Of a DNA stretch of 64,000 bases, positions 4,001 to 51,455 are shown piece after piece. Under the pieces are notes generated by a model, which did no database searches, was not told where the DNA came from, and worked only from the letters and a program-made list of their open reading frames with translations. The stretch lies in contig OZ024740.1 in NCBI GenBank assembly GCA_964016885.1, positions 407,898,001 through 407,962,000 of the forward strand. The letters run 5' to 3'. Origin of the DNA: Eledone cirrhosa. Its lineage: Eukaryota. Each line of letters opens with the position of its first letter. The stretch's first letter is position 1. Made by a program: the position numbers and the translations under genes.

Positions 4001-5167
4001 TACTTAAAACCTACAAATAGTATGATATCTAATAGCAACAAGCAAGTAGAAGTTGAAAGTAGTTTCCTACTTGCATTTTTCGCAACACCAAGAAGTTTAA
4101 GAATAAGGAATACATAACCTATAACCTGATTATAGCTACAGTAAATACTCCCATTAAGATAACAACAAATACTTATGAACATTTTGTATTTTGACTGTTT
4201 AGTCAAGAAGGGAAAAGTAAAGCTCAAGATCCTGCTCAGGACTGCCAAGACTAATGGGAAGAAAGATATCCTCCAATTGGAGACCTATCCTGAATACTTG
4301 CAATAAAGTGGATACTGTTAAATGTACTCAAGGACTAGGTGTTAGTATTACACTAGGTGACAGATCGTGTCTACCATCAAAGTAAACCACAGTGAGAGCC
4401 AGAACAAATAATGCAATACACTCTAATTATTTCTAATTTGCCACACATAACTGAATGTCAAGTATTTCATCTTTACTTACGCCAGCCTAACTATAGATAT
4501 TTAATCTAAACTGTGATCTAAACCAACATTGTGCAAGTGAATTAATATTCTATGCCACTGTTTCAGCAGTTAAATATTTATAGAATACATTGTTTGTTTA
4601 GTAAATGAGGAATCATAGAAAAACAAAAAGAAAACAATATACAAATTGCATATGAGTTATTAGATTAGAAACACAAGTCCAAAATATATTTTAAGTAAAC
4701 ATTAAGAATAATTTCTGAATTATTACGAGTTTATTCTTAATTGTTGCTAAATAACAACAGTGAATTAATATGGTCAACAAATTATTTATCATATTGTAAA
4801 TAAACCTGAGATTACTTAAGAATGGATAAAAACAGGATTTTTCTTCAATTTCTGTTTGTTATACATATTTTGTTACAAATATATGCCGCCCCAGAGTCAA
4901 TGAGAAAGCCTCTATGTAATTATCTCAAATTACACCATATCACCTTAAAAAAGGATCGACATATTCAATATTGTAGTTCTAGATACACTAAAGCAATATG
5001 GGATGGTCATGAATACCTTTGATCAGTGTTGACCTGGGGCTAAACAATGACAGCACCCTTAAAGTAAAGAGTCTTTATCCTCTAAAATGAGAAAATATAC
5101 AAAAAGGAATATCTGTTAATAAGTACAAATATTTTTAGTATCAAGTTCATAAAAGAATATTTGTTCA

Positions 5168-8100
5168 ATTCTTCATCCCAAACGCAATCCAAAACTTCAG
5201 AGTTGGTACCATAAATGTAGGCACCCTAAAGGGTCGCGCTAACGAGGTTGTAGAAATGCTTGAACGTAAGGAGGTCGATGTTTGTTGTATTCAAGAGACC
5301 AGGTGGAGGGGTGGGTCTGCTAGGTTCATTGAGGGTAAAAAACGATGTTATAAGCTTTTCTGGGTGGGAAACGACGATGGGCTGGGTGGAGTAGGAATCA
5401 TGGTAGCAGAAAAGTGGGCAGATAAGATAATAGACGTAAATAGAGTGAACGACAGAATAATTAAAATACGACTTGTCCTCAATAGAACTACGGTGACAGT
5501 AATATCTGCGTACGCACCCCAATCCGGACTGCCCGGCACTATAAAAGACAGATTCTATGAGACACTGATGCTAACTACCTCCCAAATATCCGACAGTGAC
5601 TATATAATTATCGCAGGCGACCTAAATGGTCACGTTGGACAACATTGTGACGGCTACAACGAAATCCATGGAGGCTATGGGTTTGGTACTAGAAATGAGG
5701 AAGGCTCCAGAATCCTGGAATTCTGTGATGCAAATAACCTAACTATCTGTAACACTAACTTCAAAAAACGTGACAATCACCTGATCACCTATAGATCCGG
5801 GGAACACACAAGCCAGGTAGATTATATCCTTACCAGAAGACGTGACAGAGTGTCTGTTGTTAACACTAAATCCCTCCCCCATGAAGAATGCACCTCCCAA
5901 CATAGACTGATAATTAGCGACCTCATAGTCAGGACGAGACGTACTCGACAACAGAAGAGGACTATCCTCAGGAGGAAAATATGGAAGCTAAAGGACCCCA
6001 CAGCCAGGAATAAATTTCAAAGCATATTACTTGATGCTTTCGACAGTAAGGAAGAACATTTAGAGTCGGACAATATAGAGGGAGAGTGGGAATTTCTGAA
6101 AGCAAACCTGCTGTTGGCGACAGACGAGGTCTGTGGCTGGAGCAGGCCTGTAGGCAGGAGGAGAGTAACATGGTGGTGGAACAGTAAGGTGGAGGGGTCA
6201 ATTAAGGCCAAAAAGCAGGCTTGGAAAGTATGGCGGGATGGGGGAAGTAGAGAGGACTATCAAGTGGCCAGGAGGGAAGCTAGGAGACAAGTGTACTTAG
6301 CAAGAAGGGAAGCTGAGGAAAGAAAGTTCAAGCATGTTCTACAACGCGATGACCAAAAACGTGAGGTGTTCAGGATTGCTAGGCAATGCGTCAAGGAAAA
6401 CCGTGATATTGTCGGGGAGAAGTGTGTACTAAACGACGATGGCACACTTGCCATCACCGACGCTGATAAGAAGGTAGCTTGGAAGTGTCACTATGAAAGG
6501 CTTCTAAATGAGGAGAATAATTGGGAGAAAGGCAGTCTCCCCCATATCGACCCAATAGAGGGACCAGCAGTGTTAGTCGAGGGGAGTATAATAAGTAAGG
6601 CAATCAAGGATATGAAGACTGGTAAGGCGGCTGGGCCTTCGGAAATAGTTGCTGAGATGCTGAAGGCATCTGGCACGGTGGGACACACCATGGTCACCCG
6701 CATAGTTAACCAAGTCGTACAGAATGGGGTTGTTCCGAAGGACTGGCATAGCAGCATCATCGTTAACTGTTATAAGGGTAAAGGAGACGCCCTAGATAGG
6801 AGTAACTATAGAGGCATTAAATTAATCGACCAGGTCATGAAGGTCACGGAAAGAGTAATAGCGCAACTAATCAGAGAGAGAATTGACCTAGATGAAATGC
6901 AGTTCAGGTTTGTGTCAGGCAAAAGTACCACAGACGCTCTTTTCATAGTACGACAACTACAGGAGAAGTACCTAGCTAAAGGTAAACCCCTCTACTTAGC
7001 TTTTGTCGACTTGGAGAAAGCCTTCGACAGAGTCCCCCGCTCCATTATCTGGTGGGCTCTTAGAAAACTAGGCGTTGACGAATGGCTTGTGAGGGCTATA
7101 CAAGCCATGTATAAAGAAACAGTCAGCAAGGTTAGAATTAACAACGAATATAGTGAAGAGTTTAGCGTAAAAGTTGGCGTCCATCAGGGCTCTGTTCTCA
7201 GTCCACTACTATTTATTATTGCCCTTCAGGCTATAACAGAGGAGTTCAAGACAGGCTGCCCATGGGAACTCCTATACGCAGACGACCTGACACTCATAGC
7301 GGAATCAATGGCCGAGCTAGAGAAGAAATTCCAAACATGGAAGCACGGCCTAGAGTCAAAAGGACTTAAAATTAACCTGGCTAAGACCAAAGTACTAGTT
7401 TGTAGGAAAGAAAACAAGGCGGCGGTCCCTTCTGGGAAATGGTCGTGCTCGGTGTGTAGGAAAGGCGTAGGTAGAAACTCCATTTTATGTCCTAAATGCA
7501 AAGTATGGGTGCATAAAAGATGTAGTGGGATCACAGGTAAGCTAACTAAGAACATAGATTTTACATGTGGCCGGTGCTCTGGTGCAATAAGTAGCAGCAA
7601 GTGCCCACAAACTACTAGCTCTTTCAATTGCGCAGAGGGTTCTATAGAAATAGTGGACAGCTTCCGTTACCTGGGCGATAAAATCAGCAGTGGGGGAGGG
7701 TGCTCTGAAAGTACTGTAGCTAGAGTCAGAACTGGTTGGAAAAAGTTCAGAGAGCTTATACCACTATTAGCTGCTAAAGGGTTCTCACTAAAAATGAAAG
7801 GCAGGTTGTACGATGCCTGCATACGAACAGCAATGCTGCATGGCAGTGAGACCTGGGCATTGTGTGCAGAGGATATACGCAGACTAGAGAGGAACGAAGC
7901 TTGCATGCTCCGCTGGATGTGTAACAGTAATATACGTGAACGGCAAAGCATAAACGAACTAAGGAAAAAATTAGAGATAAGAGGGATCAGATGTTGTTTA
8001 CTCGAGAGAAGGCTACGTTGGTATGGACACGTGATGCGCATGAAAGTCGATAGCTGTATAACAAAGTGCAGGGCAATAAAGATAGACGGTAGTCACGGAA

Positions 8101-8634
8101 TAGGCAGACCTAGAAAAACCTGGGACGAGCTGATAAACTCCGACATCACACACTTACACCTCTCCAAGACAATGTCACTGGACCGAGACCTTTGGCGGTA
8201 CTCAGTAACAGAGAAGACCCGCCTTACCTAAATATATAGTAAAACCTACTCCAGCCAGTAGGCATCTCTAACAAAATACACCCCGTCCCACCACCACCAC
8301 CCCCACCCGATCCACACCACCCCGTTCTATGTAAAGTTATGTTGGTGCCGCGCCATCGAGGCCGAAACAAATGAGATCGTGTAGGTGTCACGACAAAAAA
8401 AACACACAGTCCACGCTGTAATGTGGCCGTGTAGGCAACACGGTAAAAACCTCCCAGACCCACACTGTAAATGTGGTTGGTGTTAGGAAGGGCATCCAAC
8501 TGTAGAAAACCTGCCAGACAGTCCTATGCGAGCAAGACAATCACTCTTGCCTCAAGTGGGACTACCCCCGTCCAAACCCATGCAAGCGTGGAACACGGAC
8601 GTTAAACGTTGATGATGATGATGATGATGATGAT
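5168..8634 (+). mobile_element. Near-full-length RTE-clade LINE (family A), 5'-truncated
   Basis: Single long ORF, ~400-nt 3' UTR, (GAT)n tail; no 5' UTR or clear TSD seen. Confidence 0.95.
5256..8231 (+). CDS. RTE ORF: APE endonuclease + reverse transcriptase + PHD-type zinc finger
   Basis: CIQETRW, AGDLNGHVG, SQVDYIL, SQHRL (APE); FVDLEKAFD, QGSVLSP, LYADD (RT); C4HC3 at 7446-7577. Frame is open upstream through GTINVGTL to a stop at 5136 with no ATG. Confidence 0.95.
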   Translation: MLERKEVDVCCIQETRWRGGSARFIEGKKRCYKLFWVGNDDGLGGVGIMVAEKWADKIIDVNRVNDRIIKIRLVLNRTTVTVISAYAPQSGLPGTIKDRFYETLMLTTSQISDSDYIIIAGDLNGHVGQHCDGYNEIHGGYGFGTRNEEGSRILEFCDANNLTICNTNFKKRDNHLITYRSGEHTSQVDYILTRRRDRVSVVNTKSLPHEECTSQHRLIISDLIVRTRRTRQQKRTILRRKIWKLKDPTARNKFQSILLDAFDSKEEHLESDNIEGEWEFLKANLLLATDEVCGWSRPVGRRRVTWWWNSKVEGSIKAKKQAWKVWRDGGSREDYQVARREARRQVYLARREAEERKFKHVLQRDDQKREVFRIARQCVKENRDIVGEKCVLNDDGTLAITDADKKVAWKCHYERLLNEENNWEKGSLPHIDPIEGPAVLVEGSIISKAIKDMKTGKAAGPSEIVAEMLKASGTVGHTMVTRIVNQVVQNGVVPKDWHSSIIVNCYKGKGDALDRSNYRGIKLIDQVMKVTERVIAQLIRERIDLDEMQFRFVSGKSTTDALFIVRQLQEKYLAKGKPLYLAFVDLEKAFDRVPRSIIWWALRKLGVDEWLVRAIQAMYKETVSKVRINNEYSEEFSVKVGVHQGSVLSPLLFIIALQAITEEFKTGCPWELLYADDLTLIAESMAELEKKFQTWKHGLESKGLKINLAKTKVLVCRKENKAAVPSGKWSCSVCRKGVGRNSILCPKCKVWVHKRCSGITGKLTKNIDFTCGRCSGAISSSKCPQTTSSFNCAEGSIEIVDSFRYLGDKISSGGGCSESTVARVRTGWKKFRELIPLLAAKGFSLKMKGRLYDACIRTAMLHGSETWALCAEDIRRLERNEACMLRWMCNSNIRERQSINELRKKLEIRGIRCCLLERRLRWYGHVMRMKVDSCITKCRAIKIDGSHGIGRPRKTWDELINSDITHLHLSKTMSLDRDLWRYSVTEKTRLT

Positions 8635-14398: not shown

Positions 14399-16275
14399 TA
14401 TCATCATCATCATTTAACGTCCACCTTCCACGCTAGCATGGGTTAGATGGGAGTTGTCCCAATTTGAGGCAAGGTTGGTCGGGTGACCGTGTCTCGCTCA
14501 TATAGGACTATCTGGCAGGTTTTCTATGGCTGGATGCCCTTCCTAACATCAACCACATTTACAGTGTGGACTGGGAACTTTTCACCGTGTTACCTACACA
14601 ACCACATTACAGCATGGACTGTGTGTTTTTTTTGTCGTGACACCTACACGATCTCGATTTCATTATCTCATTTATTTGGACTGGATGTTGTGGTACCAAC
14701 TTTACAGAGAGAGGGTGGTGTTGGTGGGAGTGGGAGGATGGAGTAGGAGTAGTGGATTGAGGTGTATATTTGGTTAAGAGGTGCCTACTGATTGTAGGTT
14801 TCGCTTTGTACATAGGCAAAGCAGGTCTTCTGTATTACTGCGTGGCGCCAAAGATCTCAGTCCAGTGATATTGTCTTAGAGAGCTGCAAGTGTGTAAGGT
14901 CGGAATTTATCAAATCGTCCCAGGTTTTTCATAACTTCCATCAATTTTGATCGCCCTGCACATTTTTATACAGCTGTCATCTTTCATGTGCATCACTTGA
15001 CCATAACAACATAGTCTTCTCTCAAGTAAACAGCATCTGATCTCTCTTATTCCTAATTTCTCGCTTAGTTCATTTATGTTTTGCCATTCACATATATTAC
15101 TATTACACATCCAACGGAGCATACATGCTTCGTTCCTTTCCAGTCTGCGCTGGTCCTCTGCACGTAATGCCCATGTCTCACTGCCAAGTAACATTGCTGT
15201 TCGTATACAGACATCATACAATCTGCCTTTCATTTTTAGAGAGAAACCTTTTGTGGCCAACAGCGGTATAAGCTCTCTGAACTTTTTCCATCCAGTTCTG
15301 ACTCTGGCTACTGTACTTTCAGAGCACCCTCCTCCACTGCTGATTTTGTCACCCAGGTAACGGAAAGTGTCCACTATTTCTATAGAACCATCTGGGCAAT
15401 AGAAGGAGCTAGTATCCTGTGGACACTTGCTACTTATTGCATCTGAGCATTGGCCACATATAAAATCTACGTTCTTAGATAGTTTACTTGTGATCCCACT
15501 ACATCTATTATGTACCCATAGTTTGCATTTGGGCCATAAAATGGAATTTCTACCTACTCCTTTCCTACACACTGAGCATGGCCATTTCCCAGATGGCACC
15601 TGTGCCCTATTTTCCCTTCTACATACTAGAACTTTAGTCTTAGACAAGTTAACTTTAAGGCCTTTTGATTCTAGGCCATGCTTCCATGTTTGGAATTTCT
15701 TCTCTAGTTCAGCCATAGATTCAGCTATGAGAGTTAGATCATCTGCGTATAGGAGTTCCCATGGGCAGCTGGTCTTAAACTCCTCTGTTATAGCCTGAAG
15801 GGCAATAATAAATAGGAGGGGGCTAAGGACAGAGCCTTGATGAATACCAACTTTTACGCTAAATTCTTCACTATATTCATTGTTAATTCTAACCTTACTG
15901 ACTGTTTCTTTATGCATGGCTTGTATAGCTCTCACAAGCCATTCATCTACACCTAGTTTTCTAAGACTCCACCTGATAATGGAGCAGGGGACTCTGTCAA
16001 AGGCTTTCTCCAGGTCTACAAAAACTAAGTAGAGGGGTTTACTTTTAGCTAGGTACTTCTCCTGTAGTTGTCGTACAAGAAAAAGAGCGTCTGTGGTACT
16101 TTTACCTGACACAAACCCAAACTGCATTTCATCTAGATTAGTTCGCTTTCTGATTAGTTGCACTATAACTCTTTTTGTGACACTTGTGACCCGGTCAACT
16201 AACTTAATGCCTCTATAGTTTCCCCTATCTAGAGCATCCCCTTTACCCTTGTAGCAGTTAATGATGCTGCTGCTA
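14399..16275 (-). mobile_element. 5'-truncated RTE LINE (family A-related), RT + PHD, decayed
   Basis: RT ORF 14910-16275 closely similar to 5256-8231; first PHD-region Cys changed (ILWPKC); C-terminal disruption; (CAT)n tail at 14399. Confidence 0.92.
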
Positions 16276-16387
16276 CGCCAATATATATATATAATTAATG
16301 TCAACATTAGAAGAGGGATAGGCATTTTTATATATATATACATATATATATATATATAGTTATGTAATAAACAACATAAGATAATTA

Positions 16388-16447
16388 TTTCATTTACCAG
16401 TGGTTTCTTGAAAGCAAACAAATCTGCTTTCAGTCATCAGAATGAAA
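16388..16447 (-). ncRNA. Type I hammerhead ribozyme motif
   Basis: Minus strand: TTTCATT-CTGATGA-c TGAAAGCA..TGCTTTCA a-GAAA-CCA c TGG-TA-AATGAAA; predicted GUA cleavage. Confidence 0.8.
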
Positions 16448-16542
16448 AAATCCTGGTGTTTTTATTGAATGTGGTTTTCAAATCCACATTCAATAAAAAC
16501 ACCAGGATTTTTTCATTCTGATGACTAAAAGCAGATTTGTTT
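16416..16542. repeat. Fold-back inverted repeat overlapping the HHR
   Basis: ~60-bp near-perfect arms around ~16480. Confidence 0.9.
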
Positions 16543-16619
16543 TGTAACCTACATAGAGCACTCTTTTTTCCTGGACCTTTCCGACGGAATTACTTCGCAC
16601 ATATATATATATATATATA

Positions 16620-16782
16620 GGAAAAGAGTCAGTACCCCGACAGCTGAGCTCCGGTCATTTTGACAGATAGCTCAGCCACAGGGGTCCTGACTCTTTTCCT
16701 ATTACCCACTCTACTACCCTAAGTATCGAGTACTCTGGTGCATTATGGTACACCTGGTATCTTACCACACTTTCTTTGTTAT
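16620..16782 (-). mobile_element. (TA)n-embedded hairpin-ended element; homologue of 52455-52665
   Basis: Shared ~80-nt block GTGTGGTAAG...CAGAGTACTC.ATACTTAGGGTAGTAGAGTGGGTAATAGGAAAA followed by a hairpin; (TA)n on both sides. Confidence 0.65.
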
Positions 16783-16807
16783 ATATATATATATATATAT
16801 GAAAAAG

Positions 16808-16885
16808 TGAGTCCTTCATCAGTGACCCTCCAACCGTCCTAGGCATTTCATCGCTTTAAGGGCCATATACCTTAGGTTGGTGCGA
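16808..16885 (-). ncRNA. Putative non-circularly permuted hammerhead ribozyme (family A, minus copy)
   Basis: Reverse complement of 17773-17850 with one substitution. Confidence 0.6.
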
Positions 16886-17772
16886 ACAACGGCTAAAAAA
16901 AGTCGTTGGGACACGTAAATAAAGAGAACGTTAGGGTGAACAAACAAAATGGTTTAAGCAACAGAAAGTGAGAAGAAAGAGACAAGTCCCAGATTTCTAT
17001 GAATATAAACTCGATAAAATCGTGAACGAGAGAATAAAGACCATCAAACCTGGTTGAAATGTGAGCAAGGAAGGAATTTCGCACAGGTCTAACGGGGGGA
17101 AGAAGAAGGGGTCTGGTCTGCGAATTCGGTAAACATAAGTTCTGTGAAGTCGCAAACGAGAGAGAATGGCCCTTAAAGCGATGAAATGCCTAGGACGGTT
17201 GGAGGGTCACTGATGAAGGACTCACTTTTTCATATGTAACCCATTTGCAACGCCGCAGCTCCATTATTATCATATTTACACATATATTTTTTCCTCTGCT
17301 GCCACCCGTCTGTTTCGTTCTTTGTATCTTTACCCTTTCTAGCAGTCTCTCTCTCTGTTAGCCTCTTCCTCAACTTTCACTCACTCATACCCTGTCACTA
17401 CCTCTCCTCCTCTCCTCTTTTTTCCCGCTTGACCTGTCCGATTTCTTTTCTCGCGCGCTCTTGGCCAAGCCGGTATGAATTTTTTTTCTCTCTCTCTCTC
17501 GTCTGCGACTTCACAGAACTTATGTTTACCGAATTCGCAGACCAGACCCCTTCTTCTTCCCCCCATTAGACCTGTGCCAAATTCCTTCCTTGCTCACATT
17601 TCAACCAGGTTTGATGGTCTTTATTCTCTCGTTCACGATTTTATCGAGTTTATATTCATAGAAATCTGGGACTTGTCTCTTTCTTCTCACTTTCTGTTGC
17701 TTAAACCATTTTGTTTGTTCACCCTAACGTTCTCTTTATTTACGTGTCCCAACGACTTTTTTTAGCCGTTGT

Positions 17773-17850
17773 TCGCACCAACCTAAGGTATATGGCCCTC
17801 AAAGCGATGAAATGCCTAGGACGGTTGGAGGGTCACTGATGAAGGACTCA
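17773..17850 (+). ncRNA. Putative non-circularly permuted hammerhead ribozyme (family A)
   Basis: AGGTA-TA-TGGCCCT ... GAAA-TGCCT ... AGGGTCA-CTGATGA; stems I and III pair, with core strands in reversed order. Confidence 0.65.
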
Positions 17851-17894
17851 CTTTTTCATATGTAACCCATTTGCAACGCCGCAGCTCCATTATT

Positions 17895-17930
<36 letters not shown>

Positions 17931-17934
<4 letters not shown>

Positions 17935-18048
17935 TTTTAATGCGATGAAATACCAATGATCGTTGGCAAATCACTGATGAGGGACTCATTTTATAACATG
18001 TAATCCATGTGCAACCATGCAGTATTCTTCTCCCCATATTTTTCACAT

Positions 18049-18080
<32 letters not shown>

Positions 18081-18440
18081 ATATATATATATACACATCT
18101 ATATATATATATATATACACATGTATATATATATATATATATACACATGTATATATATATATATATACACATGTATATATATATATATGTGAAAAATATG
18201 GGGAGAAGAATACTGCATGGTTGCACATGGATTACATGTTATAAAATGAGTCCCTCATCAGTGATTTGCCAACGATCATTGGTATTATTGGCATTTGCCA
18301 ACGATCATTGGCATTAAAAATCATATACCTCACGTTGGTGCGATAATAACTAAAATAAGTTATTAGGACAATTGAAACGCGTAAACCGAGTGAGACAAGT
18401 AAACAACACAGGGGAAAGCTAACCGAAGATAGTAAGAAAC
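17931..18440. mobile_element. Element B: diverged relative of A, two inverted copies around a (TA)n tract
   Basis: 17931-18045 (+) and ~18188-18345 (-) carry the same motif with compensatory changes; the minus copy has an internal duplication replacing the GAAA segment. Confidence 0.7.
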
Positions 18441-18493
18441 ACAAGTGGAATGATATGGACCCCAGTCCCTATCATCTCATTTCTACAGCTGAG

Positions 18494-18750: not shown

Positions 18751-19116
18751 TGTGTGTATACGTACATACATATATGTATACAGATGTACAGTAGCATGCA
18801 TATATATATATATATACATATATATACATATATACATACAGGTACACATACAAGAATTACAACAAAAATTAAATAGAAAATATGAGTGGAACAGCAACAT
18901 CACAACTTACAATTAAGGAAAAACGAAAACACACACACACATAGAACAAACAACCAACCAGTAACATGTAAATAAACAAATAAATAAATGAACATAAACA
19001 CACACAGACACCCGGATGTGGCGCATGCGCAGACTGAGCACACAACACACACACAGAAACAAAATGGTGTAGGACAGAACAAAGGAGAGGCACAGAAACA
19101 AAGAAAGGAATCCCCA

Positions 19117-19159
19117 GTCACTGAAGAGGTCACAGAGTGTGTGACGAAAGAACTATGAC
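19117..19159 (+). ncRNA. Type I hammerhead ribozyme motif
   Basis: GTCA-CTGAAGA-g GTCAC..GTGAC-GAAA-GAAC-TA-TGAC; minimal stem III. Confidence 0.7.
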
Positions 19160-19297
19160 AATATATAAACAACTATCTGGTTGTGGAACCAACCAACCAA
19201 CCAGAAATTTATAAATTTATAAATTTATTATAATAAATTGAAGTGAAAGCATCTGGTGCGTGTGTTTCTTATTGGCAACATGACCCTCCCAAAGTAT

Positions 19298-19334
<37 letters not shown>

Positions 19335-28740: not shown

Positions 28741-29727
28741 ATGGATAGACTCTGGGAGATGGTCCAGCTAACAAACTGGTCCTTTCAGTGCCTGGACTGT
28801 ATGCCTGCTTCTCCCATTGCTGCGGAACAACAACAAAGACCGAAGATCGTGTCTTCTACCATTGTTCCTGAACAACAACAACAAAAACCGAGGATCGTGT
28901 CTTCCTCTACCATTGTCCCTGAACAAGAGCAAAAACCAACGACCGTAGCTTCTGCTACTACCCCCGTTGAAGGACTTCATCAACAACAGCAACCCATGTC
29001 TTCCTCACCCGTTACTTTTCAACAACAACAACCGACGACTGTGTCTTCTACCATGCCTGTTGAAGGAGAAGAACAAAAACAAAAACCGACCGTCAATACG
29101 GAGTTTGAGGAAATACGGCAAATGATTTCCGCTTTAAGTAAAAAAATAGCGGAAATAAAATCAAGCGTTCGTGTAGAACCCCACAATGAGGGATCTTACC
29201 GGAGTGCCTTGTTAAAAAATCGCCGCGTACCTCATGTCGAACCTAGACGCATTGAGAATGCCACTGAATCTACAAACCACGAAGTGATTGCCATTGGTGT
29301 GCCGGAAGACATAGTTGATCTTCAGGCATTTGCTGCCAGTTCATCCAAAGACCTGGGCTGTGCTCCCGCAAAGGGTGCTCTACGCCTTGGCCGACCAGGC
29401 CCGAAACCCAGGTTAATTAGACTGTCGTTTTCAAACTCAACTGAGGCACGTTCATACCTTGTAGCCTCTGATAAAGCTAGGCGTGAAAGTCGGATTGCTT
29501 TCCGAACACGTCCTGGTCTTCCACCTGATGTCCGCCCAAAGTTGCGTGCTGCAGCTTCCCTAAACCGCAGCTCGGCAGAACATGAAGGCTTCAGCCTACG
29601 AGATGATGGGCAGATATGGAAGTTTGTTAAGGCTGGCGAATCATGGAAAAGAGACACCAGCTGGTCTGAAAACACTGTACCCACAACAACTGACAATAAA
29701 GAAACTGAAAAAACTCTGGGAAACTAA
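28741..29727 (+). CDS. CR1 ORF1 (partial PHD-like Cys cluster, Q/P/T repeats, coiled coil, RRM-like part)
   Basis: Frame open from 28573 (WVECGTC..VCLQC...FQCLDC); IGVPE, LRLGRP...PRLIRLSF; ends LGN-stop. Confidence 0.75.
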   Translation: MDRLWEMVQLTNWSFQCLDCMPASPIAAEQQQRPKIVSSTIVPEQQQQKPRIVSSSTIVPEQEQKPTTVASATTPVEGLHQQQQPMSSSPVTFQQQQPTTVSSTMPVEGEEQKQKPTVNTEFEEIRQMISALSKKIAEIKSSVRVEPHNEGSYRSALLKNRRVPHVEPRRIENATESTNHEVIAIGVPEDIVDLQAFAASSSKDLGCAPAKGALRLGRPGPKPRLIRLSFSNSTEARSYLVASDKARRESRIAFRTRPGLPPDVRPKLRAAASLNRSSAEHEGFSLRDDGQIWKFVKAGESWKRDTSWSENTVPTTTDNKETEKTLGN

Positions 29728-29783
29728 ATCAGAACAACCTGCCATCCCCTGCACATAATCATAGACTGGAATCAAAGTACAAA

Positions 29784-32545
29784 TTGTTGTCCTTGAATGC
29801 ACGTAGTCTATGCAATAAGATTCATCTTTTTGACTCCTACGTCAAAAGTATCAACCCGGACTTCATTACAGTCACGGAAACTTGGGCACATCCCTTACTC
29901 TGTGATGGGGTTTTCAGCATGACTGGCTACAACCTGTTTCGTAAAGACCGTATTAATCGTCGTGGTGGTGGTGTAATGGTCTACGTTCGGTCAAATCTGT
30001 CGGCAATTCCTTGTGCTGATTTGAACCAATCACAGCAGGAAGTTTTTTTCTGCGATATACGTATGACCATGTCAACACTGCTACTTGGAGTCGTTTACCG
30101 TCCTCCAAATTACCATCAGGACACTCAACTTTGTGATATCCTCAGAGCTGCTGCCAGGAAGACAGCCACTTATGTTTTCATTGCAGGTGACTTCAATCAC
30201 CCTGAGATTGACTGGGAGACCTTTCGTTGGCCGCCAAGTGCAGATGACTTCCTTGAGCTGGTGCTGGACTCGAGTTGGTCCCAGGTGGTCACCTCCCCAA
30301 CGAGAGGTGACAACACTTTGGACCTACTCTTCACCACTACTCCTGAAACGGTCATTAGTGTTACTGCTGAGGAACCTTTAGGTGACTCTGATCATGCTAT
30401 GATCATTGCCAATCTATCCCTCATGGGCAGTAACAAGAACCACAATCATCTCCAAACTGCTCACTTTGACTGTAATAAAGCAGACTGGAACTGTTACTGC
30501 ACCGAGTTGCAACGGCCAAACTGGCTTGAGTTCTACGACTCTGGAGATGTCAACACTGTACTCCAGAACATCCTGAGCTCAATATGGACAGCATGTGCAG
30601 CATCGGTGCCACGTAAGCGGAAAAAACATCCCCAAAGCGCAATTTGGGAGACTGCAGCAGTCCGTCTTGCCAGAAAAGAACGGCGCAATGCTGAACGTGA
30701 ATACAAACTGCATAAATCAGACATTAATAGGGAGAGGCGAAATAGATCGTCCAACCACCTCAAACAGGTGACAAAAAAGGCAGTGCTTCAATTTGAGCAG
30801 CGCATAGCAACCAGCCCTGACAGTAAGGTGTTCTGGAAGTATGTTCACTCAAAGCAGAGGCCTCACTCTCCAGTTGGTCCTCTTCGCAATCCCCACACAA
30901 GCCAGGTTACTGACGACCCCAAGGAATGCGCAGAGCTCATTGCTGAATGCTATGCAGGCATTTTCACTATTGAAGACCAGAGTGTACCATCTCCACCACC
31001 TATGACACCGGACTCTATTACAACCATGGAATTTACACCTGCAATGCTGCGACGTCACCTAAAAAATAAACGCAACCATGCCTCTCCTGGTATTGATGGT
31101 GTTACGTACCTGCTTCTTAAACGTGGTGGGTACTTCCTTCTACACCAGTTATCACGCTTCTTCCAATTCTGTCTGAACAACAGTGCTACTCCAGAACAGT
31201 GGAAAACTGCCAGTGTCATTCCTCTGTTCAAAAAGGGTGACCGCACATCACCTGTGAACTATCGTCCAGTCAGTCTTATTAGTTGCATCGCCAAACTGAT
31301 GGAATCCTGTGTCAGAGAAACACTTTGGAACTTCTGGAGCTCTCACAGTCTTATCCGGCCCTCGCAATTTGGATTTATCCCCAACTCCAGCTGCTGTGAT
31401 CAACTTATAGAGTTTCTTGAGGACATCACCCGGATCACTGATGGCGGTTCATGGGTGGATGTTGTTTACCTTGACTTTGCGAAGGCCTTCAATTCTGTGC
31501 CGCACAAAAGGCTTATGGCAAAACTCTCTGCAATGAGTGTGAAGGATGATCTTTTTAACTGGTTGAAGTCCTTCATTCTCAGTCGAGGAGAGGTAGTCAC
31601 GGTTCTGGGACAGCATTCCTCACCATATGAGATGTCATCTGGTGTACCTCAGGGATCTGTTCTTGGCCCCCTTTTGTTTGTGGCATATATTAATGACATA
31701 GATGCCAACTTAAGGAATGCCACAGTACTAAAGTACGCAGACGACATCAAGCTGTACCTTGAGATAAAAAGGACAGATCCTGAACACTATAGATCTTGCT
31801 TGCAGTCTGACCTGGACACAATGCAACAGTGGATCTCAGACTGGCAACTCAAGCTAGCTGTGAACAAATCACCACCATGCATTTTGGGAGTAAAAACCCA
31901 GCGTCCACATACTCCCTCCACAGCACTAATATCAAGAAGTCTTCCTGTGAACGTGACCTGGGCATTACGGTCAGCAGCGATTTGCGTTGGACGAGGCACG
32001 TCTCTAAAATTGTCAAGAGGGCCGATGATGTCTTAGCATCACTCAGCAAGACCTTTGTCGGCCGCTCTCCAGATATCTATTTAAGGCTGTATACAGCTAT
32101 GGTGCGACCACACTTAGAATTTGCATCACCAGTCTGGAACCCCTATCTTGCTCAGGACATTGACCGCCTGGAAACTGTTCAGAGACGTGCAACCAAGCGA
32201 ATACCCTCCATCAGGCATCTACCATACTCTGAGCGCCTTGCTTCCCTGGGCATGGATTCATTGAAGCTCCGACGCCTGGCAACTGACTTGGTAAACACCC
32301 ATAAAATTGTTAACCATGTTGCCAACAACAACCCTGAGTACCTTTTCGATTTCCATGTGTCTAACACACGTGGGCATGCCCACAAAGTAAGAAAACAGCA
32401 CAGTTCCCATGACTTTCGGAAACATTTTTTCACGCTCAGAGTTGCTGAAGCATGGAACAAACTACCTGCATCAGTTGTTAGCTGTCGAGACACTGCATCC
32501 TTTAAGGCCTCCATGCTTCCCGAGATCCGCCAACAGAACAGCTAA
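29784..32545 (+). pseudogene. CR1 ORF2 (APE + RT) with one frameshift near 31869
   Basis: LNARSL, VTETW, AGDFNHP, SDH; YLDFAKAF, GVPQGSVLGP, YADD; continues in another frame MHFG...VRPHLEFASPVWNP...WNKLP. Confidence 0.92.
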
Positions 32546-33873: not shown

Positions 33874-34150
33874 AAAAAGATGAAATCGAAAATGCAACTG
33901 GAGTCTTATTTTTAAAAAAATATATATATTTATTTGGTTCCTTTACCGGTTTCGCAGTTCTTCTGCTTTTCAAAAGTAGAGTTGAGATGGAGGGTCTGTG
34001 GTTTTTCTCACATCTGAGAAAAACCACAGACCCTCCATCTCAACTCTACTTTTGAAAAGCAGAAGAACTGCGAAACCGGTAAAGGAACCAAATAAATATA
34101 TATATTTTTAAAAAAATAAGACTCCAGTTGCATTTTCGATTTCATCTTTT
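33874..34150. repeat. ~137-bp-arm palindrome carrying a variant HHR per arm
   Basis: Arms mirror around CATC at 34011-34014. Confidence 0.9.
34049..34084 (+). ncRNA. Variant minimal hammerhead (UUGAAAA core); mirror at 33941-33976 minus
   Basis: CTT-TTGAAAA-GCAG aagaa CTGC-GAAA-CCGG-TA-AAG; U3-A8 replaces C3-G8. Confidence 0.65.
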
Positions 34151-43172: not shown

Positions 43173-43208
43173 TTTTCTGATGAAGGACTAGCGTCCGAAA
43201 CGTTAAGA
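43173..43208 (+). ncRNA. Minimal hammerhead motif in a probable Penelope-like 3' end (~43010-43300)
   Basis: TTTT-CTGATGA-a GGAC tagc GTCC-GAAA-CG-TT-AAGA; upstream LNRNG resembles the end of a PLE ORF. Confidence 0.7.
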
Positions 43209-47994: not shown

Positions 47995-48001
<7 letters not shown>

Positions 48002-51000
48002 CAAATAACGAAACGAAATTAAATTTCGTTTCGTTTGTAACTCACTTTTGTATGACTGACGCTTAAACAATTAAGTTAAAAATGTACATCTACATATGCA
48101 TACTGAAATATTAGTATGCATATGAATACACACACGTATACATATGTAGATGTACCAAGTCTTTCACTGGTTACTTTACTGTGAGTATCCAGCTATTCTG
48201 TATGTAAACACACAGACAAACCGGTTTTTAGAGTCATACTGGTTTTTGAGGAAACACCTTTCCTCTATTCTCCAGAAAGCCAGACAAGGAATATTGAACT
48301 AGTTTCGTTGTTGTTACAACTCATCAGCAATATTTACCTATCTACCGGCCTTTCTGGAGAATCGTAAAAGCACATATCGTTATATGCTTTTTCTATGAAA
48401 ATTAGTAGTGGGCAGACTAATTTGCATAGAGTGTGAGTACGTACCGGTTCAACGGAGACGATAAAAACAAATAACGAAACGAAATTAAATTTCGTTTCGT
48501 TTGTAACTCACTTTTGTATGACTGACGCTTAAACAATTAAGTTAAAAATGTACATCTACATATGCATACTGAAATATTAGTATGCATATGAATACACACA
48601 CGTATACATATGTAGATGTACCAAGTCTTTCACTGGTTACTTTACTGTGAGTATCCAGCTATTCTGTATGTAAACACACAGACAAACCGGTTTTTAGAGT
48701 CATACTGGTTTTTGAGGAAACACCTTTCCTCTATTCTCCAGAAAGCCAGACAAGGAATATTGAACTAGTTTCGTTGTTGTTACAACTCATCAGCAATATT
48801 TACCTATCTACCGGCCTTTCTGGAGAATCGTAAAAGCACATATCGTTATATGCTTTTTCTATGAAAATTAGTAGTGGGCAGACTAATTTGCATAGAGTGT
48901 GAGTACGTACCGGTTCAACGGAGACGATAAAAACAAATAACGAAACGAAATTAAATTTCGTTTCGTTTGTAACTCACTTTTGTATGACTGACGCTTAAAC
49001 AATTAAGTTAAAAAAAACAATTAAGTTAAAAATGTACATTTACATATGCATACTGAAATATTAGTATGCATATGAATACACACACGTATACATATGTAGA
49101 TGTACCAAGTCTTTCACTGGTTACTTTACTGTGAGTATCCAGCTATTCTGTATGTAAACACACAGACAAACCGGTTTTTAGAGTCATACTGGTTTTTGAG
49201 GAAACACCTTTCCTCTATTCTCCAGAAAGCCAGACAAGGAATATTGAACTAGTTTCGTTGTTGTTACAACTCATCAGCAATATTTACCTATCTACCGGCC
49301 TTTCTGGAGAATCGTAAAAGCACATATCGTTATATGCTTTTTCTATGAAAATTAGTAGTGGGCAGACTAATTTGCATAGAGTGTGAGTACGTACCGGTTC
49401 AACGGAGACGATAAAAACAAATAACGAAACGAAATTAAATTTCGTTTCGTTTGTAACTCACTTTTGTATGACTGACGCTTAAACAATTAAGTTAAAAAAA
49501 ACAATTAAGTTAAAAATGTACATCTACATATGCATACTGAAATATTAGTATGCATATGAATACACACACGTATACATATGTAGATGTACCAAGTCTTTCA
49601 CTGGTTACTTTACTGTGAGTATCCAGCTATTCTGTATGTAAACACACAGACAAACCGGTTTTTAGAGTCATACTGGTTTTTGAGGAAACACCTTTCCTCT
49701 ATTCTCCAGAAAGCCAGACAAGGAATATTGAACTAGTTTCGTTGTTGTTACAACTCATCAGCAATATTTACCTATCTACCGGCCTTTCTGGAGAATCGTA
49801 AAAGCACATATCGTTATATGCTTTTTCTATGAAAATTAGTAGTGGGCAGACTAATTTGCATAGAGTGTGAGTACGTACCGGTTCAACGGAGACGATAAAA
49901 ACAAATAACGAAACGAAATTAAATTTCGTTTCGTTTGTAACTCACTTTTGTATGACTGACGCTTAAACAATTAAGTTAAAAATGTACATCTACATATGCA
50001 TACTGAAATATTAGTATGCATATGAATACACACACGTATACATATGTAGATGTACCAAGTCTTTCACTGGTTACTTTACTGTGAGTATCCAGCTATTCTG
50101 TATGTAAACACACAGACAAACCGGTTTTTAGAGTCATACTGGTTTTTGAGGAAACACCTTTCCTCTATTCTCCAGAAAGGCCGGTAGATAGGTAAATATT
50201 GCTGATGAGTTGTAACAACAACGAAACTAGTTCAATATTCCTTGTCTGGCTTTCTGGAGAATAGAGGAAAGGTGTTTCCTCAAAAACCAGTATGACTCTA
50301 AAAACCGGTTTGTCTGTGTGTTTACATACAGAATAGCTGGATACTCACAGTAAAGTAACCAGTGAAAGACTTGGTACATCTACATATGTATACGTGTGTG
50401 TATTCATATGCATACTAATATTTCAGTATGCATATGTAGATGTACATTTTTAACTTAATTGTTTAAGCGTCAGTCATACAAAAGTGAGTTACAAACGAAA
50501 CGAAATTTAATTTCGTTTCGTTATTTGTTTTTATCGTCTCCGTTGAACCGGTACGTACTCACACTCTATGCAAATTAGTCTGCCCACTACTAATTTTCAT
50601 AGAAAAAGCATATAACGATATGTGCTTTTACGATTCTCCAGAAAGGCCGGTAGATAGGTAAATATTGCTGATGAGTTGTAACAACAACGAAACTAGTTCA
50701 ATATTCCTTGTCTGGCTTTCTGGAGAATAGAGGAAAGGTGTTTCCTCAAAAACCAGTATGACTCTAAAAACCGGTTTGTCTGTGTGTTTACATACAGAAT
50801 AGCTGGATACTCACAGTAAAGTAACCAGTGAAAGACTTGGTACATCTACATATGTATACGTGTGTGTATTCATATGCATACTAATATTTCAGTATGCATA
50901 TGTAGATGTACATTTTTAACTTAATTGTTTAAGCGTCAGTCATACAAAAGTGAGTTACAAACGAAACGAAATTTAATTTCGTTTCGTTATTTGTTTTTAT

Positions 51001-51392
51001 CGTCTCCGTTGAACCGGTACGTACTCACACTCTATGCAAATTAGTCTGCCCACTACTAATTTTCATAGAAAAAGCATATAACGATATGTGCTTTTACGAT
51101 TCTCCAGAAAGGCCGGTAGATAGGTAAATATTGCTGATGAGTTGTAACAACAACGAAACTAGTTCAATATTCCTTGTCTGGCTTTCTGGAGAATAGAGGA
51201 AAGGTGTTTCCTCAAAAACCAGTATGACTCTAAAAACCGGTTTGTCTGTGTGTTTACATACAGAATAGCTGGATACTCACAGTAAAGTAACCAGTGAAAG
51301 ACTTGGTACATCTACATATGTATACGTGTGTGTATTCATATGCATACTAATATTTCAGTATGCATATGTAGATGTACATTTTTAACTTAATT

Positions 51393-51396
<4 letters not shown>
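47995..51396. mobile_element. Inverted tandem array of 466/484-bp HHR-bearing units inside (TA)n (retrozyme/Penelope-like)
   Basis: Unit starts at 47995, 48461, 48927, 49411, 49895; inversion at ~50167-50179; ~2.6 reverse units to 51396. Confidence 0.92.
50195..50239 (+). ncRNA. Type I hammerhead (also 50661-50705, 51127-51171 plus; 48290-48334, 48756-48800, 49240-49284, 49724-49768 minus)
   Basis: AATATTG-CTGATGA-GTTG taacaa CAAC-GAAA-CTAG-TT-CAATATT; palindromic ACTAGT stem III; extended stem I. Confidence 0.85.

Positions 51397-51455
<59 letters not shown>

Follow-up and report, generated by a model that had tools for sequence, protein, structure and literature searches.

The 64,000-nucleotide window that we analyzed carries copies of a non-coding tandem repeat that targets (TA)n and is likely copied by a Penelope-type reverse transcriptase (RT). 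The type-SGC-like hammerhead that is predicted in its RNA probably self-cleaves in vivo, and some of the copies, a minority, begin at the predicted cut or shortly beyond it; we put the probability of this reading at about 70%. Self-cleavage of the motif RNA is predicted, with the statistics of genomic 5′ ends as indirect evidence; these ends were mapped throughout the 3.0-Gb assembly in which the window lies, whose size and repeat content suggest an animal host. Positions are counted from the predicted cut, with H17 as −1 and the base that follows it as +1.

The repeat forms three mutually related families, A, B, and C, with units of approximately 525 to 740 bp (626 nt in A). A pattern spanning GAAA to CUGAUGA had 9,758 matches genome-wide and a pattern across the intact cut had 8,973, and the repeat family comprises about 9,000 copies. 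The monomers stand in tandem, each with the hammerhead motif, as seen in the 626-nt unit, in segments with several sites, and in an array of nine A-type monomers approximately 720 to 810 nt apart on the window's contig (C1:43918140-43924180), which is a candidate source locus for the tandem precursor RNA. Copies of A were mapped wherever an exact match to A occurred on contigs C1 and C2, with the exception of one place on C2. Among 87 segment ends, at least one uncut site was crossed in 79 and at least two in 13, and the 5′ ends were scattered over the unit. True ends at −4 to +1 numbered four, the window's included, and a few of the mapped ends, namely two false +1 ends and five at +393, reflected breaks in the alignment of diverged copies. 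The 3′ alignment ends of these segments lay at +121 (45), +69 (25), and +109 (4), with some TA overlap included in each, and they formed two classes one tail apart, the tail of 30 to 40 nt being optional. Head-to-head inverted 5′-truncated partners were common, and the copies were flanked by (TA)n. Because of these two 3′ end classes, inverted partners, and flanks, we assigned the repeat the hallmarks of Penelope elements, as they are described in the available text of PMC8557442 and PMC11167929. The repeat unit itself contained no RT or GIY-YIG open reading frame (ORF). Fragments of Penelope-type ORFs were present in neighboring (TA)n tracts; Pfam gave a sub-threshold RT match for one of these ORFs and nothing for two others, and the SGC motif was absent from all five of their 3′ regions that were examined.

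The window also holds other elements. The 3′ end of a Penelope-type element lies at approximately 18860-19300 on the plus strand and includes, at 19121, the core of a minimal type I hammerhead; by eye, this 3′ region also follows a GIY-YIG-like ORF at two loci (L084 and L153). Further CUGAUGA...GAAA cores with short spacers, at 43177 (+), 53397 (+), and 24645 (−), are likely minimal hammerheads of other Penelope-type repeats. An inverted block at 47995-51397 is made of near-identical 466/484-nt tandem units with a type I hammerhead-like match in each (Rfam Hammerhead_HH9, scoring 38.6 bits against a cut-off of 52 bits; seven copies) and looks like a classical non-LTR retrozyme. Long open frames at 5139-8228 (+), 14913-16433 (−), and 29709-32033 (+) are presumably similar to LINE endonuclease/RT pieces, while near-perfect DNA hairpins at 16416-16542, 16617-16702, and 33973-34052 are probably head-to-head ends of other repeats.

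An intact copy of the predicted type-SGC-like motif occupies 17773..17843 on the plus strand. It comprises a distal stem II strand (17773-17776), a strand of the I-II interaction (17778-17783) with its partner (17823-17828), stem III (17787-17791 with 17812-17816), H17 (17792), the predicted cut (17792/17793), stem I (17793-17798 with 17830-17835), a stem II strand (17804-17808), GAAA (17809-17812), CUGAUGA (17836-17842), and N10.1 (17843). The blocks thus run from cleavage site to GAAA to CUGAUGA, which is the non-circular S-G-C order by the definition given in the available part of PMC10085705. In 18 aligned rows, CUGA.GA and GAAA were invariant (18/18) and U preceded H in 17/18; H17 in intact sites was A or C. 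Over all helices, 93.4% of the cells in these rows were paired, compared with at most 48.5% in slid controls. Two-sided changes were seen in seven pairs, a number equalled in 1 of 500 shuffles, but this figure is not a probability, since the 18 rows were hand-picked related subfamilies, two of them with non-element upstream sequence. Stem I was 98.1% paired with three two-sided pairs, stem III 87.8% with two, and the interaction helix (−15 to −10 with +31 to +36) 93.5% with one; this last helix joins stems I and II, and its partner strand is located 5′ of the motif. Of 205 Rfam matches, the 150 listed included no hammerhead family at the position of the motif. Small internal deletions recurred in which the stem III strand and H17 were lost between repeated TGA or GG words.

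Stem II is the unusual part of the motif. It is split, with +16 pairing with +51 and +12 to +15 pairing with −20 to −17. When a contiguous stem II after CUGAUGA was tried, only +16/+51 paired and the next three positions did so in 0 to 5% of 20 clusters; a pairing of −9 to −6 with +55 to +58 had no support across clusters either. In 235 motifs, −19 versus +14 was C/G in 216, T/A in 8, T/G in 5, C/A in 2, and other in 4, so that the upstream strand shows essentially one subfamily-level compensatory change (8/235). Hammerheads usually have a G-C pair after CUGANGA, and the single A-U or G-U pair after CUGAUGA here is atypical. We read the motif, as a structural model, as an SGC fold that would be interrupted between N10.1 and N10.2 by the remainder of the monomer.

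In the window, as read from the sequence, a (TA)n target tract (16780..16800) lies to the left of the A insertion, and a second tract (17898..17931) separates A from B. The inverted 5′-truncated A copy (16794..17165, minus strand) contains unit positions +327 to +626 and then +1 to approximately +66/72, with its tail absent and its motif intact (CUGAUGA at 16822, minus strand), and it is the reverse complement of 17493-17864 at 98.7%. The sense A copy (17166..17898, plus strand) starts at −1/+1 of the predicted cut and consists of one 626-nt monomer plus +1 to +106; it ends at +106 in (TA)n, includes a tail of approximately 34 nt, and contains a second, intact cut site at 17792/17793. A continued inversion would read ...GAGAGAG at the junction, whereas the window reads ...GAGAGAA followed by TGGCCC; the lone A is therefore either H17, which puts the start at −1, or untemplated, which puts it at +1. 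The short sense B copy TGATTTTT (17931..18047, plus strand, +1 to +117) has its first base at 17931, immediately 3′ of (TA)n, and its start is ambiguous from −4 to +1/+2 because the window's B subfamily has TATA before the cut. It faces a separate B copy (18189..18490, minus strand, 5′ limit approximate) across a TA/TACACATG tract, and in that copy the GAAA block is destroyed by a local duplication. The sequence-only reading, which began sense A at 17166/17167 directly after the inverted segment and sense B at 17931 directly after (TA)n with an ambiguity of a few bases, was thus confirmed at both places. Its further statement, that both starts are the first base 3′ of the predicted UH site, agrees with the A junction to within −1/+1 and draws nothing from B. 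The window pair is weak evidence, because the B junction falls into a TATA-ambiguous class that was not enriched (A 14 versus 15.9 expected and C 28 versus 21.7 expected, among the listings scored). The window's B junction alone is uninformative, while its A junction is compatible with an origin at the cut, with odds of perhaps even to 2:1 that it is cut-derived.

The genome-wide junctions were more informative at base resolution. For A, a genome-wide pattern gave 56 rows, all of which were taken, and 55 junctions were scored by eye, with the first 30 also scripted and one −4 row being internal. Fourteen of the 55 junctions lay at +1, compared with 3.5 expected (p=7e-6); the other positions held 14 (−4), 1 (−3), 2 (−2), 7 (−1), 4 (+2), 2 (+3), 5 (+4), 3 (+5), and 3 (+6). 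Five of the +1 rows had a C before +1, and since H17 was A in 174/175 intact A motifs, this C is probably untemplated. When the five C rows and one duplicate were removed, the +1 peak was 8/49 (p=0.012). A single C was often seen between (TA)n and +1, including in subfamilies with H17=A, and is possibly an untemplated base added at run-off.

Because H17 belongs to the 5′ product, copies of cut RNA must lack it, a test that was set beforehand. It was applied in the B/GATGG subfamily, whose intact sites had H17=C in 814 cases and H17=A in 497. All 53 rows were used, 30 of which were checked on their loci, and 47 junctions remained once an insertion and five internal rows had been set aside. Their +1 was preceded by A in 28 cases, by C in 5, and by G/T in 14, compared with 20.4, 21.4, and 5.2 expected under uniform truncation of uncut RNA with approximate null weights (p=2e-7). 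A nearest-neighbor classifier, which was correct for 37/41 copies and called 3/10 A-type copies C, assigned 12 junction copies to the C type, and only one of them kept the C (p=3e-6); five of the 11 without it had G/T, for which no classifier is needed. Ends at −4 to +1 make up a small class, 10 of 292 exact A sites and approximately 47 against 1,311 intact sites in B/GATGG, or about 3% each.

A genomic junction gives the end of a template and not its maker, and a fixed +1 RNA end could also be made in another way, for instance by a protein nuclease or by transcription that starts internally, if that end happened to fall on the predicted scissile bond; the Penelope pLTR is said to carry a promoter in the portions available of PMC8557442 and PMC11167929. 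We consider this explanation unlikely. The boundary is a single bond that was predicted from structure alone, H17 is lost there, and conservation extends over the core and the helices, with covariation. The bases before +1 are TA or TC, and therefore no splice acceptor is present.

A coarser census of 5′ ends between −16 and +29 covered the first 90 of 160 A rows and the first 90 of 233 B rows, with 12 internal and 4 indel rows excluded in A and 12 and 5 in B; such large tallies were scored by eye from listings. The −4 to +1 class showed no excess in A (8/74; 8.5 expected) or in the window's B subfamily, B/ATCG (6/73; 9.5 expected); taken by itself it suggests no signal, and TATA ambiguity dominates it. 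A pile-up at +7 to +11, identified post hoc, was found in both (A, 26/74 versus 8.8 expected; B, 21/73 versus 7.6) and was replicated in family C (15/68 versus 6.2). The C sample was 100 of 404 rows, with 68 junctions scored by eye and 71 rows also scripted, and its pattern left out short tail-less copies. In these junctions the upstream count was 8 (15.8 expected), and the −4 to +1 class reached 14 (6.6 expected), contrary to the prediction of no excess. With A, B, and C pooled, p was 0.09 for the −4 to +1 class and 2e-13 for the pile-up, and −16 to −5 was depleted (35/219 versus approximately 60 expected, pooled; p=4e-5). Short copies had 8 ends in the 12 nt of −16 to −5 and 68 in the 28 nt of +2 to +29, and long copies had 19 and 38, a post hoc contrast (Fisher p=0.002) that was computed after two real junctions per family had been restored in A and B. 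We also considered that TTAA had served as a site at which later insertions split old copies. This would leave orphan left halves, but the 400 to 1,500 nt of flank covered at the census junctions contained none that matched, and one unrelated match.

The pile-up was also mapped in B/GATGG, in 100 of 288 rows with 95 junctions scored by eye: 14 fell at −4 to +1, 6 at +2 to +5, 74 at +6 to +11, and 1 at +12 to +13. When these ends are included, the share of B/GATGG that ends at or near the cut is estimated at roughly one in six. An AT-rich control stretch at −43 to −22 (35 rows, 23 junctions among 30 checked) had ends at approximately 0.15% per nt, compared with approximately 2.2% per nt at +6 to +11, a difference of about 15-fold with denominators from different patterns. 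The AT at +3/+4 in B was scarcely used, and trimming to the nearest microhomology is therefore an incomplete account. Insertions at the intact cut were found at 12 sites, four of them not simple duplications, together with one oligo-A case, whereas the six at one control position were all local duplications; the extra bases at the cut may mark places where ends were joined or the template was jumped, which is suggestive only.

Several observations count against the main reading. Most copies cross an uncut site, and stem II is atypical. Family C lacked a sharp +1 peak (5 of 87 junctions versus 7.0 expected, in 100 of 201 rows), and the coarse class was flat in A and B/ATCG; these two results also speak for random 5′ truncation with TA microhomology to the (TA)n target, under which the window's two junctions would be coincidental. 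Random truncation also fits the 5′ ends that lie over the whole unit and the TATA at the cut, and for the window's B copy alone it is a fair reading. As a general explanation we find it rather improbable. Microhomology cannot explain G/T before +1 or the loss of C in the TATC subfamily, the equally AT-rich upstream stretch is about 15-fold colder, and the +1 class in A and the H17 result in B/GATGG already contradict it. An RT pause at +1 to +11 on uncut RNA, caused by structure or a bound protein, would suit the breadth of the main pile-up, 6 to 11 nt from the cut, and family C, which shows only the broad form, but it is very doubtful: the 3′ strands of all four helices lie at +12 or beyond and should be unwound before +11, the upstream RNA that remains is no more stably folded than its shuffles (z = 0.65, −1.07, and 1.30 in three subfamilies), a one-base spike is not predicted, and a stall at a ligation scar would itself imply cleavage.

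The idea that the reverse-transcribed RNA had a ribozyme-made 5′ end is therefore supported for a minority class, by the +1 peak in A, the B subfamily with H17=C, and the depletion just upstream of the cut. As a general rule it is not supported, in view of the 8,973 uncut sites, the larger pile-up at +6 to +11, and family C. Likewise, the sharp peak that the sequence-only reading expected from 5′ boundary mapping was found at +1 in A and not in C; ends spread across the unit had been named as evidence against it, and the A ends are indeed spread, yet the minority class is sharp at +1.

For the repeat we infer self-cleavage, run-off at +1, trimming to the TTAA, and mobilization by a Penelope enzyme. 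Reverse transcription would begin inside the RNA, approximately 66 to 72 or 106 to 117 nt 3′ of the cut, and if the template was a cut linear RNA, the enzyme would run off at +1, sometimes with an untemplated base added. The cDNA end could then join the target, or a partner cDNA, either directly at +1 or, in the commoner case, once 5 to 10 nt had been lost back to the TTAA at +7 to +10. Because most copies cross an intact site, their template would have been uncut precursor or a re-ligated circle, or the site would have been crossed by template jumping, and the ends of such copies would be scattered. Template jumping is known from work on R2.

If this is right, genomic ends at the predicted bond are a measurable read-out of cleavage in vivo, and most insertions trace to uncut or re-joined RNA. 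We lean slightly toward a new SGC hammerhead variant with a split stem II that is closed by the flanking monomer and active in a eukaryotic, probably animal, retroelement of approximately 9,000 copies, its cuts fossilized at +1. The range of type-SGC hammerheads would then take in a genomic retroelement of high copy number. It would further suggest that Naiad-type Penelope elements have scrambled hammerheads where these were called "missing" or "half-core". The motif also provides a simple descriptor for re-screening Penelope clades that were reported without hammerheads. In the one in-vitro system for Penelope-like elements, another Penelope element, the hammerhead was dispensable for insertion, and no RNA-seq reads began or ended at its cut, as far as the available text of PMC11167929 goes, a result that counts against the main reading. 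This report was also what a literature search, with most subscription papers outside its scope, gave on ribozyme-defined ends in Penelope copies, and its available text has none in RNA-seq.

The element can be compared with three known systems. Like Penelope-like elements in the text available for PMC11167929 and PMC8557442, it has two 3′ end classes one tail apart, an inverted 5′-truncated partner, and partial tandems, and it shares a (TA)n bias with Naiads (PMC8557442); unlike them, its unit has no RT or GIY-YIG ORF. The part of PMC8557442 available describes canonical hammerheads as missing from Naiads and mentions some "half-core" cases, and whereas PAc showed no RNA ends at its hammerhead in the available part of PMC11167929, the element here has a class of genomic ends there. 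Metazoan non-LTR retrozymes, as covered by the available portions of Cervera and de la Pena 2020 (PMC7229834) and Li et al. 2026 (10.64898/2026.07.22.740005), likewise are non-coding tandem monomers with one hammerhead each and thousands of copies. They are proposed to be non-autonomous Penelope derivatives, and the read-through of the cut in our element fits circles such as theirs (PMC7229834). In contrast, theirs are type I hammerheads (the only motifs in the available text of 10.64898/2026.07.22.740005) in units of 150 to 450 bp, while the element here has the SGC order rather than type I topology and units of approximately 525 to 740 bp. Type-SGC hammerheads are HRIMA-1 and variants (Eckert et al. 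2023, PMC10085705), and in the text available they share with our motif the order cleavage site, GAAA, CUGANGA, pseudoknotted stems I and III, a short linker between stems I and II, and a helix that joins these two stems. Our motif differs in being opened between N10.1/N10.2, with most of stem II and one interaction strand coming from the 5′ side, and in residing, as a motif of predicted cleavage, in a genomic repeat of approximately 9,000 copies rather than in presumed viroid-like RNAs. The word "animal" is absent from the main text of PMC10085705 in the form available, although its RefSeq search could include eukaryotic matches; PMC13725137, in its available text, does no more than cite Eckert et al. 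Within a literature search that left most subscription papers outside its scope, type SGC was reported only from metagenome and RefSeq searches and in no retroelement. Since the motif has neither type I topology nor a contiguous stem II, the element is a member of neither the retrozymes nor the type-SGC hammerheads; judging from its sequence, we file it as one that would work like a non-LTR retrozyme with an SGC-like ribozyme, yet as a variant distinct from both.
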